Assembly (NCBI RefSeq): GCF_003790525.1
Contig: NZ_CP033635.1
DNA from: Escherichia coli
GTDB lineage: Bacteria > Pseudomonadota > Gammaproteobacteria > Enterobacterales > Enterobacteriaceae
Direction: 5' to 3' (one strand)
DNA: 64,000 nt
Of this stretch, positions 479-4,781 are shown one piece after another (the first letter of the stretch is position 1; each line of letters begins with the position of its first letter). Under the pieces are notes generated by a model. That model saw only the letters and a list, made by a program, of their open reading frames with translations, was not told where the DNA came from and did no database searches. A program made the translations under genes and the position numbers.

Positions 479-1750
479 ATGCAGTATGAAGATGAAAACG
501 GCGTGAATGAACCGTCACGCCGACGTTTACTGAAAGGGATTGGTGCGTTGGCGCTGGCGGGAAGTTGTCCGGTCGCTCATGCACAAAAAACGCAAAGTGC
601 ACCGGGCACGCTTTCACCGGATGCGCGCAGTGAAGCGCAGCCGTTTTATGGCGAACATCAGGCGGGTATTCTGACGCCGCAGCAGGCGGCAATGATGCTG
701 GTGGCGTTTGATGTGCTTGCCAGCGATAAAACCGATCTTGAACGGTTGTTTCGCTTGTTGACTCAGCGTTTTGCTTTTCTGACTCAGGGCGGAGCGGCAC
801 CAGAAACGCCAAATCCGCGCCTGCCACCACTCGATTCCGGCATTCTTGGCGGCTACATTGCGTCCGATAATCTCACCATAACGTTATCGGTGGGCCATTC
901 ATTGTTTGATGAGCGGTTTGGCCTTACACCGCAGATGCCGAAAAAGTTGCAGAAAATGACGCGTTTCCCCAACGACTCGCTGGATGCGGCGTTATGTCAT
1001 GGTGATGTGTTGCTACAAATTTGCGCCAACACCCAGGACACGGTGATCCATGCGCTGCGCGATATCATCAAACACACGCCGGATTTGCTCAGCGTGCGCT
1101 GGAAGCGGGAAGGGTTTATTTCCGATCACGCAGCGCGTAGTAAAGGCAAAGAGACGCCGATAAATTTGCTGGGTTTTAAAGACGGCACAGCCAATCCCGA
1201 TAGCCAGAATGCGAAGTTGATGCAAAAAGTGGTGTGGGTGACGGCAGATCAGCAGGAGCCTGCGTGGACAATCGGTGGCAGCTATCAGGCGGTGCGGTTG
1301 ATTCAGTTTCGGGTGGAGTTTTGGGACAGAACGCCACTGAAAGAACAGCAGACGATTTTTGGTCGCGACAAACAAACTGGTGCGCCGCTGGGCATGCAGC
1401 ACGAGCATGATGTTCCCGATTACGCCAGCGATCCGGAAGGGAAGGTGATCGCGCTGGACAGCCATATTCGGCTGGCGAATCCCCGCACGCCAGAGAGTGA
1501 GTCAAGTCTGATGCTGCGTCGTGGCTACAGTTATTCACTGGGCGTCACCAACTCCGGGCAACTCGATATGGGGCTACTGTTTGTCTGCTACCAACACGAT
1601 CTGGAAAAGGGCTTCCTGACAGTACAAAAAAGGTTGAATGGCGAGGCGCTGGAGGAATATGTCAAACCTATCGGTGGCGGCTATTTCTTTGCGCTGCCGG
1701 GTGTGAAGGACGCGAACGATTATCTCGGAAGCGCATTATTGCGGGTTTAA
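479..1750 (+). CDS. efeB: Dyp-type peroxidase / deferrochelatase EfeB with Tat signal
   Basis: 423-aa ORF; N-terminal twin-arginine motif [16 protein letters not shown]; Dyp peroxidase-like length; operon context. Confidence 0.93.
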
Positions 1751-1759
1751 TGTTTTTAG

Positions 1760-1900
1760 GCGTATAAGGCATTCGTGCGCAGATGCCTGATGCGACGCTT
1801 GCGCGTCTTATCATGCCTACAATCGGTGCGGGTTCGGTAGGCTGAATAAGGCGGTCACGCCGCATCCGGCGTTCGTGCGTTGATGCCTGATGCGAATCCT
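1760..1900. repeat. REP/BIME palindromic repeat cluster
   Basis: repeated gcctgatgcga...cttatca / cacgccgcatccggc motifs typical of enterobacterial REP elements in the efeB-phoH intergenic region. Confidence 0.7.
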
Positions 1901-1927
1901 GCTGAAAGCACACAGCTTTTTTCATCA

Positions 1928-1945
1928 CTGTCATCACTCTGTCAT
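1928..1945 (+). promoter_or_regulatory. Pho box (tandem PhoB half-sites CTGTCAT) of phoH promoter
   Basis: sequence ctgtcatcactctgtcat read directly, followed by AT-rich -10 region about 40 bp downstream. Confidence 0.7.
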
Positions 1946-2094
1946 CTTTCCAGTAGAAACTAATGTCACTGAAATGGTGTTTTATAGTTAAATATAAGTG
2001 AATATATTGTTGCAATGAATGCGAGATCTGTTGTACTTATTAAGTAGCAGCGGAAGTTCCCGGCAGTGATAGTCAGTCACTATGGAGATCGCGG

Positions 2095-3159
2095 ATGGTA
2101 ACGTCCTGTACTGGACATGTTTTAGATAATCAACGCGCCACCACTCGCGGAGTTTTCTCCTCCGGTAGTCATCTCGTCACTTTGCATTTTCAACCTCATC
2201 CTTTCTTTTCATGTGTTACCGACGCCGCAAACGGTGTGCGTAGCCGTTTTTCGGCATTTTATCCAAAAGCAAACTATGGCTTACAAGGAAGCCAACCCTC
2301 TGATGTTCGTGCGCATAATCGCGCTGCCAACGGCGCGTGTGATGAATACAAACAACTCAAGGTGCTCTCCATGGGAAGACAAAAAGCAGTGATCAAAGCT
2401 CGTCGCGAGGCAAAACGTGTGCTGAGACGGGATTCGCGCAGCCATAAGCAGCGTGAAGAAGAATCGGTCACCTCGCTTGTGCAGATGAGCGGCGTAGAAG
2501 CCATTGGTATGGCCCGCGACAGTCGCGATACTTCGCCCATCCTCGCGCGAAATGAAGCGCAATTGCACTATCTGAAGGCTATTGAGAGTAAGCAGCTGAT
2601 ATTCGCCACGGGCGAAGCCGGGTGCGGAAAAACCTGGATCAGCGCAGCAAAAGCGGCAGAGGCCCTGATACATAAGGATGTCGACAGGATTATCGTCACC
2701 CGTCCAGTTCTGCAAGCCGATGAAGATCTTGGCTTCTTACCTGGTGATATCGCAGAAAAGTTTGCTCCCTATTTTCGCCCGGTCTACGATGTGCTGGTTC
2801 GGCGCTTAGGGGCTTCCTTTATGCAGTACTGCCTGCGACCAGAAATAGGGAAGGTGGAAATTGCGCCGTTCGCCTATATGCGTGGACGTACCTTTGAAAA
2901 TGCAGTCGTCATTCTTGACGAGGCGCAGAATGTGACTGCCGCGCAAATGAAAATGTTTTTAACCCGCCTCGGGGAGAACGTGACGGTTATCGTCAACGGT
3001 GATATCACGCAATGCGATTTGCCTCGCGGCGTGCGCTCCGGATTAAGTGACGCGCTGGAACGTTTCGAAGAAGATGAAATGGTCGGGATCGTCCGATTCG
3101 GTAAAGAGGATTGCGTACGTTCAGCACTTTGCCAACGTACGCTACATGCATACAGTTAA
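2095..3159 (+). CDS. phoH: PhoH, phosphate-starvation-inducible ATPase (PhoH/PhoL family)
   Basis: 354-aa ORF with Walker A GEAGCGKT; internal in-frame start at 2372 (MGRQKAVIKA...) could give a shorter product. Confidence 0.9.
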   Translation: MVTSCTGHVLDNQRATTRGVFSSGSHLVTLHFQPHPFFSCVTDAANGVRSRFSAFYPKANYGLQGSQPSDVRAHNRAANGACDEYKQLKVLSMGRQKAVIKARREAKRVLRRDSRSHKQREEESVTSLVQMSGVEAIGMARDSRDTSPILARNEAQLHYLKAIESKQLIFATGEAGCGKTWISAAKAAEALIHKDVDRIIVTRPVLQADEDLGFLPGDIAEKFAPYFRPVYDVLVRRLGASFMQYCLRPEIGKVEIAPFAYMRGRTFENAVVILDEAQNVTAAQMKMFLTRLGENVTVIVNGDITQCDLPRGVRSGLSDALERFEEDEMVGIVRFGKEDCVRSALCQRTLHAYS

Positions 3160-3174
3160 GTGTATTATCGGCGC

Positions 3175-3205
3175 AGAGCCCGGGCGAACCGGGCTTTGTT
3201 TTATT
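3175..3205 (+). terminator. rho-independent terminator after phoH
   Basis: GC stem agcccgggcgaaccgggct followed by T-run ttgttttatttc. Confidence 0.6.
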
Positions 3206-3721
3206 TCATTAACAGCAAAGACTTTCACTTCAGGTTAACGTTCTGGGGGGCGACTTTGAGCGTGTTGATAAGCTGAAATTAATTCTGGTTTAGATGCTTT
3301 TACCAGGCATTTTTCGTCATAGCACGCGACCAATGTAATGCCTCCAGCGCGGAGAGTTTTTTGCCTATCTTTTTCCAGCCATTCAACCTGTACAGGAGGT
3401 CTGGTGCCAATTTTGCGTATGAGGTTTAATCAACAATGAGCCAAAATTTGACTGACTGATTAACACCAAATATATTCTCCTGATTTTATTTTTTAGGGAT
3501 AATATTAAAAATATAAGGTTAATCTTAATTAAATTTTTGGCTAATATTGTGTCTTGTTATTTTTTGTGGACGGCAAGCCGCAATGGCAAAATAGGTATGG
3601 TTGTAATAATCAAAACATGATACTAACTATATATAGATCGTTGAATTGTTGGCATGTAACTCGCTACAGCGAGTAGCGTTAGTAATGAAATATAATCAAC
3701 ATGGATAGGTGAAGATTAATT

Positions 3722-4408
3722 ATGAGCTTTATGGTTTTTGTAACTTGTTTGACAATTGCATTTGTCGCCGGTTTTGCTGTTGCCAGAAAATTGACACTCC
3801 GAAAAGTTGCCTCATCGGTAATCATCACTAAATCGCAACCAGTTCCTTCCTCTGCAACTTCCCCTGCTGTTAAGGCGTCGACAAGGAGCTATACACCGCA
3901 GAAAACCTATCGTGACTCTCGTTGGCAAGAACGAGATGAGTTGTTCCAGGGAATGGTTGCCGAAGGTATTTTATTGGAAGGAAAAGAGTGGTTAATTACG
4001 CGTTGTGAAAAAATCTATTTTGATAATCTGGAGAAATGGTTTGGACATTATTGTCATATCCATTGCCAGGTCTCTCTGGGGCGCTTGATCAACTTTCCAG
4101 AACAACCCGAGTTTAGCGAAGAAGAAAGAAAGCGTTTCTTTGCAATTTATAATGGAATGGCAATGGATTATGTTCTGGTTTCAAAGAAGAACAATAAAAT
4201 AGTCTGTGTTATTGAGCTGGATGATCCGAGTCATGAAAGGGCAGATCGCATTATTCGTGACCGTTGGTTGAATACGATTATGACTATTGCACGGGTGCCT
4301 TTTGTACGAGCTTCTGTCACTAAATTGGATGAAATCCCTCCGGTCTGGGATACCCGTGACAAAATGCGCCCATTAGCCGCGGCGACAAAGGGTGAACCGT
4401 TGCATTAA
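3722..4408 (+). CDS. hypothetical membrane-anchored protein; N-terminal TM helix, Ser/Pro/Thr-rich linker, Cys/His cluster, DUF2726-like (PD-(D/E)xK-fold-like) C-terminal module; not present at this position in K-12
   Basis: 228-aa ORF preceded by very AT-rich leader; hydrophobic N-terminus MSFMVFVTCLTIAFVAGFAVA; motif MDYVLVSKKNNKIVCVIELDDPSHERADRIIRDRWL resembles the DUF2726 core; about 40% GC on hand count of first 120 nt. Confidence 0.6.
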   Translation: MSFMVFVTCLTIAFVAGFAVARKLTLRKVASSVIITKSQPVPSSATSPAVKASTRSYTPQKTYRDSRWQERDELFQGMVAEGILLEGKEWLITRCEKIYFDNLEKWFGHYCHIHCQVSLGRLINFPEQPEFSEEERKRFFAIYNGMAMDYVLVSKKNNKIVCVIELDDPSHERADRIIRDRWLNTIMTIARVPFVRASVTKLDEIPPVWDTRDKMRPLAAATKGEPLH

Positions 4409-4499
4409 CTAAGTACCCCGATCGGGGCTTCTCATCCCCCCGGTGTGTGCAATATACGAAAAAAAAGCCCGTACTTTCGTACGAGCTCTTCTTTAAAGA

Positions 4500-4587
4500 T
4501 GGCGGTGAGGGGGGGATTCGAACCCCCGATACGTTGCCGTATACACACTTTCCAGGCGTGCTCCTTCAGCCACTCGGACACCTCACC
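4500..4587 (-). tRNA. serX: tRNA-Ser (anticodon GGA), serX-like
   Basis: reverse complement reads GGTGAGGTGTCCGAGTGGCTGAAGGAGCACGCCTGGAAAGTG...GGTTCGAATCCCCCCCTCACCGCCA with long variable arm and CCA end; A-run on + strand 4462-4469 gives terminator on - strand. Confidence 0.9.
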
Positions 4588-4781
4588 AAATTGTTGTTCC
4601 TGTCTTGCTGGAACGGGCGCTAATTTAGGGAAATCATGACCTGAGGTCAACAAACTTTTTTAAAAAATCGCGCGTTTATTCAAACTTCAATCAATATGCA
4701 GTTTTAATAAGCGAAATTTGCTTTTTTTGCCACCGACCACGGATTTGTTATGCTGGTGGCTTTTGTAGATCATAACGATAA

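Follow-up and report, generated by a model that had tools for sequence, protein, structure and literature searches.

The phoH gene of Escherichia coli K-12 (b1020, psiH) is a classic gene of the Pho regulon, and we analyzed its counterpart, together with the control region in front of it, in a stretch of 64,000 nucleotides (nt) from the E. coli contig NZ_CP033635.1 (hereafter, the window; positions are counted from its first letter). PhoH is a widespread ATPase that is also common in phages. The K-12 MG1655 gene is annotated as encoding 354 amino acids (aa), also the length given in UniProt, and its promoters P1 and P2 reportedly go back to work by Kim in 1993. Chromatin immunoprecipitation with sequencing (ChIP-seq) located a PhoB site with the motif TGTCATCACTCTGTCATC upstream of K-12 phoH; phoH RNA dropped 2.8-fold upon deletion of phoB (from 37,076 in the wild type to 13,375), sigma-70 occupancy at phoH was reduced in the phoB deletion strain, and the gene was counted in the agreed pho regulon operons (Fitzgerald et al. 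2023). For the second promoter, P2, Park et al. 2013 cite Kim et al. 1993; in their study, the footprint of phosphorylated ArcA (ArcA-P) on the phoH promoter extended from -80 to -21 (numbered from the P2 start), and an arcA mutation derepressed phoH 25-fold. With regard to translation, the retapamulin-assisted ribosome profiling (Ribo-RET) study of Meydan et al. 2019 lists phoH with the E. coli genes in which translation also initiates internally and in frame, at a site preserved in relatives, and reports raised synonymous-site conservation around such preserved internal starts.

The window carries the same locus as K-12, with an identical Pho box, an ArcA site that is the same except for one base, the same type of leader and the same 354-codon in-frame open reading frame (ORF). 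Across the region, K-12 and the window showed ~98% identity, and window positions 1750-3200 were 100% identical to E. coli SMS-3-5 (NC_010498.1); the region was present in nearly all complete E. coli genomes. K-12 and SMS-3-5 differ in the 3' neighbors of phoH and in its annotated length: in SMS-3-5 and 11 other RefSeq E. coli records annotated with the Prokaryotic Genome Annotation Pipeline (PGAP), phoH is given as 262 aa with its coding sequence (CDS) starting at the ATG at 2371.

We estimate a probability of about three in four that the window holds a phoH control region consisting of a PhoB-activated promoter P1, a promoter P2 repressed by ArcA-P, two start codons and a leader ORF that is translated and joined in frame to phoH. 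The Pho box and the two starts, as set out in a preliminary description of this DNA, are already known; on their own they restate the known biology of the gene and carry little weight. The sole possibly new part, which comes from comparing sequences, would be that the leader is translated and structured and is either fused to phoH or separate from it depending on the lineage, with a split within E. coli. We found no description of a translated, structured phoH leader or of its fused and separate states in the literature searched, and work on MazF-induced proteins and the DGF-298 genome mentioned only ybeZ or a deletion including phoH. The practical value lies in annotation, as neither the 354-aa nor the 262-aa model of phoH would be a mistake for the other; they probably reflect two real start sites, of which the long one is strain-dependent.

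Promoters in front of phoH

Canonical Pho boxes such as those of pstS and phoA follow the consensus CTGTCATA(A/T)A(T/A)CTGTCA(C/T), and the box stands in for the -35 element, with a -10 hexamer ~10 bp downstream. The window contains the following elements in front of phoH.

1928-1945, plus strand: Pho box, the PhoB site of promoter P1, CTGTCAT CACT CTGTCAT = CTGTCATCACTCTGTCAT
1963-2016, plus strand: ArcA-P binding region, with direct repeats GTTAA/GTGAA/GTTGC at 11-bp spacing and a distal repeat; overlaps P2
2010-2047, plus strand: constitutive promoter P2 region, with a start site at ~2037-2047 deduced from the ArcA footprint coordinates

Like the boxes of pstS and phoA, the phoH box consists of two 7-bp direct repeats with 11-bp periodicity, and both half-sites are perfect CTGTCAT copies. 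Unlike those boxes, it has a 4-bp spacer, CACT, that is not A/T-rich, and the -10 hexamer that follows is weak or ambiguous; the candidates are TAGAAA (1954-1959) and ACTAAT (1959-1964), and a promoter scan gave no match there. The preliminary description had reported tandem CTGTCAT half-sites upstream of the long phoH ORF and had considered them consistent with PhoB control, and our data agree with both statements. When both strands of the 64-kb window were searched for CTGTCATCACTCTGTCAT with at most one mismatch, the pair at 1928-1945 was the single match, compared with 0.02 expected (100 shuffles). Furthermore, all 18 bp of the box are identical to the ChIP-seq PhoB motif of K-12 phoH, whose RNA is PhoB-dependent (Fitzgerald et al. 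2023). The box lies 150 nt from the long ATG (2095) and 426 nt from the internal ATG, upstream of both.

For comparison between species, we used 80 loci from Enterobacteriaceae, one per species, which amount to 81 sequences with the window. The aligned set comprised the window and 79 of these loci (80 sequences), and one locus that was short of upstream DNA was left out. In most of the 80 loci, a Pho-box-like repeat preceded the short ATG by 427-448 nt. In E. albertii (L008), the promoter-proximal CTGTCAT half-site alone was kept, ~430 nt before the short ATG, and unrelated sequence took the place of the distal half and of the DNA 5' of it; judging from this sequence, PhoB control of phoH may be weakened in that species.

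Positions 1963-2016 correspond to the footprinted ArcA site given in the supplement of Park et al. 2013, with one base different. From the footprint coordinates, transcription from P2 would begin at ~2037-2047, on the 5' side of the long ATG. Two blocks in the ArcA/P2 region, TGTTGCA and TGATGTACTTA, were conserved. As P1 and P2 both lie upstream of both ATGs, both promoters would feed both start codons. An internal promoter for a short-only transcript was considered and rejected; the scan detected nothing resembling a sigma-70 promoter in the interval 2095-2371, and P2 was placed 5' of the long ATG. Similarly, the GTGA-N-TCAC sequence at 2066-2080 was rejected as a CRP site because its spacing varies from 4 to 9 nt among species, which fits an RNA hairpin and not a fixed DNA site. 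Under phosphate limitation, PhoB would bind the box at 1928-1945 and activate P1, and P2, ~90 nt downstream of the box, would act independently of PhoB and be repressed by ArcA-P. Judging from the promoter positions, every transcript would carry the whole leader.

Two start codons and a leader ORF that is fused or separate

Translated leader ORFs coupled to a downstream gene are known, for example, from mgtL-mgtA and from overlapping stop-start coupling in operons. The coding features of the phoH locus in the window are as follows.

2095-3159, plus strand: long ORF, 354 aa
2084-2097, plus strand: upstream (long) start, with GGAG at 2084-2087 and ATG at 2095-2097
2359-2373, plus strand: internal (short) start, with the Shine-Dalgarno sequence AAGGTG at 2359-2364 and ATG at 2371-2373
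2371-3159, plus strand: phoH CDS, a conserved 262-aa PhoH-type P-loop ATPase according to Pfam, NCBIfam and the ratio of nonsynonymous to synonymous change (dN/dS)
2095-2370, plus strand: leader ORF, open in the 80 aligned sequences and here a 92-codon N-terminal extension of the 354-aa PhoH
2192, plus strand: base deleted in a second E. coli leader type, according to an alignment of eight E. coli leaders; its loss breaks the long ORF
2390-2392, plus strand: TGA in the +1 frame, unused here; the stop of a 97-98-codon upstream ORF where the leader is frameshifted

The internal ATG is in-frame codon 93 of the long ORF, and its product begins MGRQKAVIKARREAKR. AAGGTG lies 6 nt 5' of this ATG and formed a predicted duplex of -8.2 kcal/mol with 16S rRNA, which is in the top 7% of plus-strand ATGs in the window; the GGAG of the long start gave -7.1 kcal/mol with the 3' tail of 16S rRNA (top 13%). 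The preliminary description had claimed an in-frame internal ATG at 2372, a purine-rich stretch before it and, as a consequence, possible long and short protein forms. The in-frame ATG is present, but its coordinate was off by one and is corrected here to 2371; the purine-rich stretch is the AAGGTG sequence; and the possibility of two forms was upheld by the Shine-Dalgarno sequences at both ATGs, the split in annotation and the listing of phoH by Ribo-RET. A phoH entry was also looked for in the supplements of a tetracycline start-site study and a ribosome-signature study, and none was found there.

The domain matches lie in the part encoded after the short ATG: PF02562 (Pfam) matched residues 149-353 of the long ORF (E 1e-76, 257.5 bits; cut-off 27), the NCBIfam equivalog NF007827 (phosphate starvation-inducible PhoH) matched residues 101-353 (510.9 bits; cut-off 380), and the sole solved relative, PDB 3b85, spans residues 152-353. 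No Pfam match was found in the 92-codon extension. A third start, the GTG at 2236-2238 (codon 48), is used for phoH in the database protein cluster P0002 (307 aa, 1,357 members) as the choice of an automatic gene caller; we found no conservation supporting it.

The short ATG and AAGGTG were invariant in 81 of 81 sequences, and AAGGTGCC-ATGGGAAGACA was kept in three Yersiniaceae. The upstream start was also well conserved. We detected its motif, GGAGATCGCG(G/A)ATGG, in all loci but one (79 of 80), the exception (L045) having too little upstream DNA; the upstream ATG and the GGAGA core formed invariant columns of the alignment, and a related motif occurred in the three Yersiniaceae. As in infB and arcB (Meydan et al. 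2019), phoH has an in-frame internal AUG with its own Shine-Dalgarno sequence that is preserved in evolution. Unlike in those genes, the internal start of phoH is the ancestral and universal one and the upstream start is variable, and the extension shows no constraint at the protein level and is absent from many relatives.

We then compared the frame of the leader ORF between species. Of the 80 aligned sequences, 54 had the ORF in frame with phoH, for a predicted protein of 352-356 aa; among them are the window, Enterobacter, Kosakonia, Klebsiella and Buttiauxella. It was separate in the other 26. In 21 of them, including Citrobacter, Salmonella, E. albertii and E. whittamii, a frameshifted ORF of 97-98 codons ended with a TGA 22 nt inside phoH; in five, including Kluyvera and Pseudescherichia, an ORF of 84 codons terminated 23 nt 5' of the short ATG, at an ATG-TAA. 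The leader motifs were also retained in the three Yersiniaceae, in which the ORF is unfused (100, 87 and 133 codons) and its end lies 21-64 nt 5' of the short ATG; therefore, the unfused arrangement may be older than the fused one. In the window, by comparison, there is no separate leader ORF ending near or overlapping the main start, as the fusion is in frame and without a stop. In the sequences compared, the short start is the universally conserved one, and the long ORF is lineage-specific and even strain-specific.

The +1-frame ORF at 2213-2392 was considered as a separate gene in the window and rejected, as most changes in codons 58-92 are silent when read in the phoH frame; the +1 frame at these positions is used only where the leader is frameshifted. 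We also noted a conserved out-of-frame ATG at 2342-2347 (GTGATGAAT here; ATG-TAA in many genera), whose conservation we attribute to its pairing with CAT at 2314-2316 in the RNA structure. The TAA of this ATG-TAA is the stop codon of the upstream ORF in the five species with the 84-codon form.

The fusion also varied within E. coli. Two leader types were found, which differ by ~25 clustered substitutions at ~2110-2215 and by the 1-nt deletion at ~2192. The window type gave the 354-codon ORF in six of six sampled genomes, including K-12 and O157:H7; the second type gave a 98-codon upstream ORF instead of the 354-aa protein in seven of seven, including O103 RM8385. Using type-specific 131-nt probes on 5,426 complete E. 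coli genomes, we detected the window type in 3,462 and the second type in 1,967. Extrapolated through these probes from the 13 fully read sequences, ~36% of E. coli genomes are probably unable to encode the long form. The type-specific substitutions are packed in ~100 nt, on either side of which the two types do not differ, including the 160 nt that directly precede the short ATG (L087, L088, L090-L094); in sequence, the two types look like an old, recombining polymorphism rather than a recent mutation.

These comparisons bear on the view that only the 354-aa protein is made, with Met93 an ordinary methionine and AAGGTG mere coding sequence. The MG1655 annotation, the intact long ORF in the 54 fused sequences, the window among them, and a 39-kDa product reportedly seen in 1993 agree with this view. 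However, the PhoH domain is translatable only from the short ATG in the 26 unfused sequences, in the three Yersiniaceae and, probably, in the ~36% of E. coli genomes that carry the second leader type; the short ATG and its Shine-Dalgarno sequence are invariant everywhere; PGAP and the NCBIfam equivalog use the short form; and Meydan et al. 2019 report a conserved in-frame internal start in phoH. We consider this explanation very improbable.

Selection and RNA structure in the leader

Among the 54 fused sequences, dN/dS was 0.85 for codons 2-57 and 0.9 for codons 58-92, compared with 0.034 for core PhoH (dS 0.95). In codons 58-92, dS was only 0.25, implying a constraint on nucleotides. By these ratios, the 92-codon extension shows no selection at the protein level. 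Nevertheless, the leader ORF stayed open. No early stop was found in the 80 aligned sequences, whereas 17 nonsense events were expected from a conservative lower bound of 517 substitutions (P ~3e-8) and 85 by a spanning-tree estimate; for the 21 frameshifted species alone, 9-21 were expected and none was seen. The other two frames of the leader carried 2.8-7.3 stops on average. Where a frameshift had occurred, stops arose at least four times in the original frame, now abandoned, and never in the frame in use. As a pattern across sequences, an ORF that stays open while its peptide is free to vary is in keeping with a leader that needs to be translated rather than with a functional domain.

The same data allowed us to weigh the opposite view, namely that only the 262-aa protein is real, the upstream ORF being an untranslated 5' region open by chance and the K-12 annotation a mis-call. 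Several observations are as this view would have it: the dN/dS of 0.85-0.9, the lack of a Pfam domain, the disregard of the extension by PGAP, the wealth of hairpins with covariation, as for a non-coding leader, and the repeated loss of the fusion. On the other hand, a region open by chance would hardly keep an invariant upstream ATG and GGAGA core, remain free of early stops in fused and unfused species alike while its other two frames collect them, and gain stops only in the frame that was abandoned. This view is improbable and, like the preceding one, conflicts with the conservation data.

Alternatively, the extension could be a functional, fast-evolving tail (a disordered regulatory or targeting segment), so that the long and short proteins would have distinct roles in strains with the fusion. 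The extension is open at a near-constant 90-94 codons in 54 sequences from many genera, and it contains invariant residues (G7, R14, G19 and the GLxGSQ and HxR motifs), as would be expected of such a tail. However, its dN/dS is near 1 and the invariant residues coincide with invariant RNA stems; moreover, the fusion was lost independently several times and in one third of E. coli genomes without apparent decay of phoH itself. A model by AlphaFold2 on a 24-sequence alignment was too poor to tell whether the tail folds, as the mean predicted local distance difference test (pLDDT) score was 37.8 even for the core. We regard a functional tail as rather improbable, though somewhat less so than a mis-called annotation.

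We next examined the leader at the RNA level. From a MAFFT alignment of the 80 sequences, made without fitting to a structure, RNAalifold predicted 16 helices. With these helices, 95.1% of cells were paired, compared with 30-50% when the partners were slid by 1-3 columns; 24 pairs were changed on both sides (9-17 in the slid controls), corresponding to 207 cells (27-82 in the controls), and the covariation score was 0.143 (at most 0.064 in the controls). None of 500 shuffles reached any of the observed values. The best-supported hairpins were those at 2145-2166, 2221-2258 and 2320-2337. The predicted elements are listed below.

2058-2088, plus strand: hairpin GTGA-loop-TCAC (helix 1), in which CCC at 2059-2061 pairs with GGAG at 2084-2087 of the upstream start; stem kept, loop 4-9 nt, two pairs changed on both sides
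2103-2116, plus strand: hairpin GTCC-TGTACT-GGAC (helix 4), directly 3' of the upstream ATG; stem kept, loop variable, compensatory GCCC/GGGC in Phytobacter
2145-2166, plus strand: hairpin CGGAG-loop-CTCCG (helix 6); four of seven pairs changed on both sides, e.g., GCGGTA/TACCGC in L048
2221-2258, plus strand: nested hairpin GACGCC/GGCATT around CGGT/GCCG (helices 8 and 9); six of six pairs in helix 8 and three of four in helix 9 changed on both sides
2277-2294, plus strand: hairpin TGGCTT-ACAAGG-AAGCCA, with an AAGGA motif in the loop; near-invariant in the 80 sequences, including third codon positions, with compensatory GGUCU/AGACC in Rahnella
2297-2362, plus strand: long-range helix 12, CCTCTGATGTT (2297-2307) with AACTCAAGG (2354-2362); CCT at 2297-2299 is predicted to pair with AGG at 2360-2362 of the short-start Shine-Dalgarno sequence
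2314-2344, plus strand: inner hairpin CAT..CGCGCTG-loop-CGGCGCG..ATG (helices 14 and 15), enclosed by helix 12; four pairs changed on both sides (CGTGCC/GGCACG, CGCGTT/AACGCG, CGCGTC/GACGCG)

The invariant loop sequence ACAAGGA of the hairpin at 2277-2294 is similar to the motif recognized by CsrA, a GGA within a loop; GGA is also part of the upstream Shine-Dalgarno sequence, AUGGAGA.

From these data, a mechanism can be proposed. Ribosomes would start at both 2095 and 2371 in the window's strain, as conservation and Ribo-RET suggest. The start at 2095 would open a hairpin-rich leader of ~276 nt, which here and in K-12 is in frame and would yield the 354-aa (39 kDa) protein; the start at 2371 would yield the 262-aa (29 kDa) form that is conserved across Enterobacterales and represents the PhoH family protein. 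The 92-codon extension would thus be a translated leader ORF that became fused to phoH, and selection would keep the leader open and translated up to the short start while leaving its peptide unconstrained. Translation of the leader probably melts the helix between CCU (2297-2299) and AGG over the short-start Shine-Dalgarno sequence. PhoH synthesis would then be coupled to leader translation, or the long leader would be shielded from premature termination; either coupling or protection would explain why the leader ORF always reaches the short start, fused or not.

In its general form, this proposal states that phoH of Enterobacterales is preceded by a previously undescribed translated and structured leader that serves as a coupling or sensing device, and that the 354-aa PhoH of K-12 is a fusion with it. 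We put it forward tentatively, at a little below even odds. The leader would be ~280 nt long in Enterobacteriaceae and longer in Yersiniaceae, and would contain six or more conserved hairpins, several with covariation. The leader ORF, 84-133 codons in length, would always extend to within ~65 nt of the phoH start, and the peptide would drift almost neutrally. About two thirds of E. coli genomes would carry the fusion, which the remaining E. coli genomes, Salmonella, Citrobacter and Yersiniaceae would lack. Like leaders of the mgtL-mgtA type, the phoH leader has a conserved Shine-Dalgarno sequence and ATG and an ORF selected for openness and not for its peptide; its unfused ORFs end from -64 to +22 nt relative to the main start, and the main Shine-Dalgarno sequence is predicted to be paired. 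Unlike in that type, the phoH leader ORF is very long and is here fused, resulting in an extended protein and not a separate peptide. If the proposal is true, it offers a testable handle on post-transcriptional control of PhoH and a clear case, found in nature, of an upstream ORF alternating between separate and gene-fused states.

Several points weigh against this proposal or against the reading of the locus as a whole. Helix 12 was 94% paired but contained a single covarying pair, and both helices that mask Shine-Dalgarno sequences are near-invariant, so covariation neither supports nor refutes them. The leader RNA of the window alone was no more stable than shuffled sequence (z = +0.43). 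The reduced synonymous change in codons 58-92 inflates their dN/dS. The +1 frame is stop-poor even where it is unused, with no stops in several Enterobacter species; therefore, survival of an ORF just after a frameshift is unremarkable. The 39-kDa PhoH is said to have been confirmed by N-terminal sequencing in 1993, which, if correct, would mean that the long form is made when overexpressed. Finally, the accessible Ribo-RET text leaves the codon of the phoH internal start unnamed (Meydan et al. 2019).

It is also possible that the hairpins act by themselves as a platform for a protein (CsrA or PhoH itself), as a small-RNA target, or as an entry site for RNase or Rho, with the ORF only shielding the RNA. 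The invariant AAGGA in the loop of the hairpin at 2277-2294 would suit such a platform; both Shine-Dalgarno sequences are predicted to be partly paired, and PhoH-family proteins are candidate RNA binders. However, no link between phoH and CsrA was found in the literature searched, and a covariance-model search of the leader against Rfam 15 gave no match up to E = 10. We consider this explanation unlikely, although it deserves more credit than a functional tail.

Neighborhood of phoH

The genes and elements that surround phoH are listed here.

479-1750: efeB, the 5' neighbor of phoH
3173-3209, plus strand: intrinsic terminator of phoH, an 11-pair GC-rich stem followed by a T run
3722-4408: a DUF2726 gene, followed by a minus-strand tRNA-Ser and then ghrA, the 3' neighbors of phoH

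The spacer between efeB and the Pho box contains two REP-type palindromic elements (1744-1887), whose matches to naRNA4, the only ones in the Rfam search, scored 39.8 and 26.1 bits, under the gathering score of 59.5. The content of this spacer varies between strains, as the alignment to some E. coli genomes does not begin until query position 35-38 or 119. On the 3' side, the phoH neighborhood is rearranged between E. coli strains: the DUF2726 gene and tRNA-Ser within 3160-4780 are also present in SMS-3-5, whereas pgaD and pgaC (of pgaDCBA) lie directly 3' of phoH in K-12.

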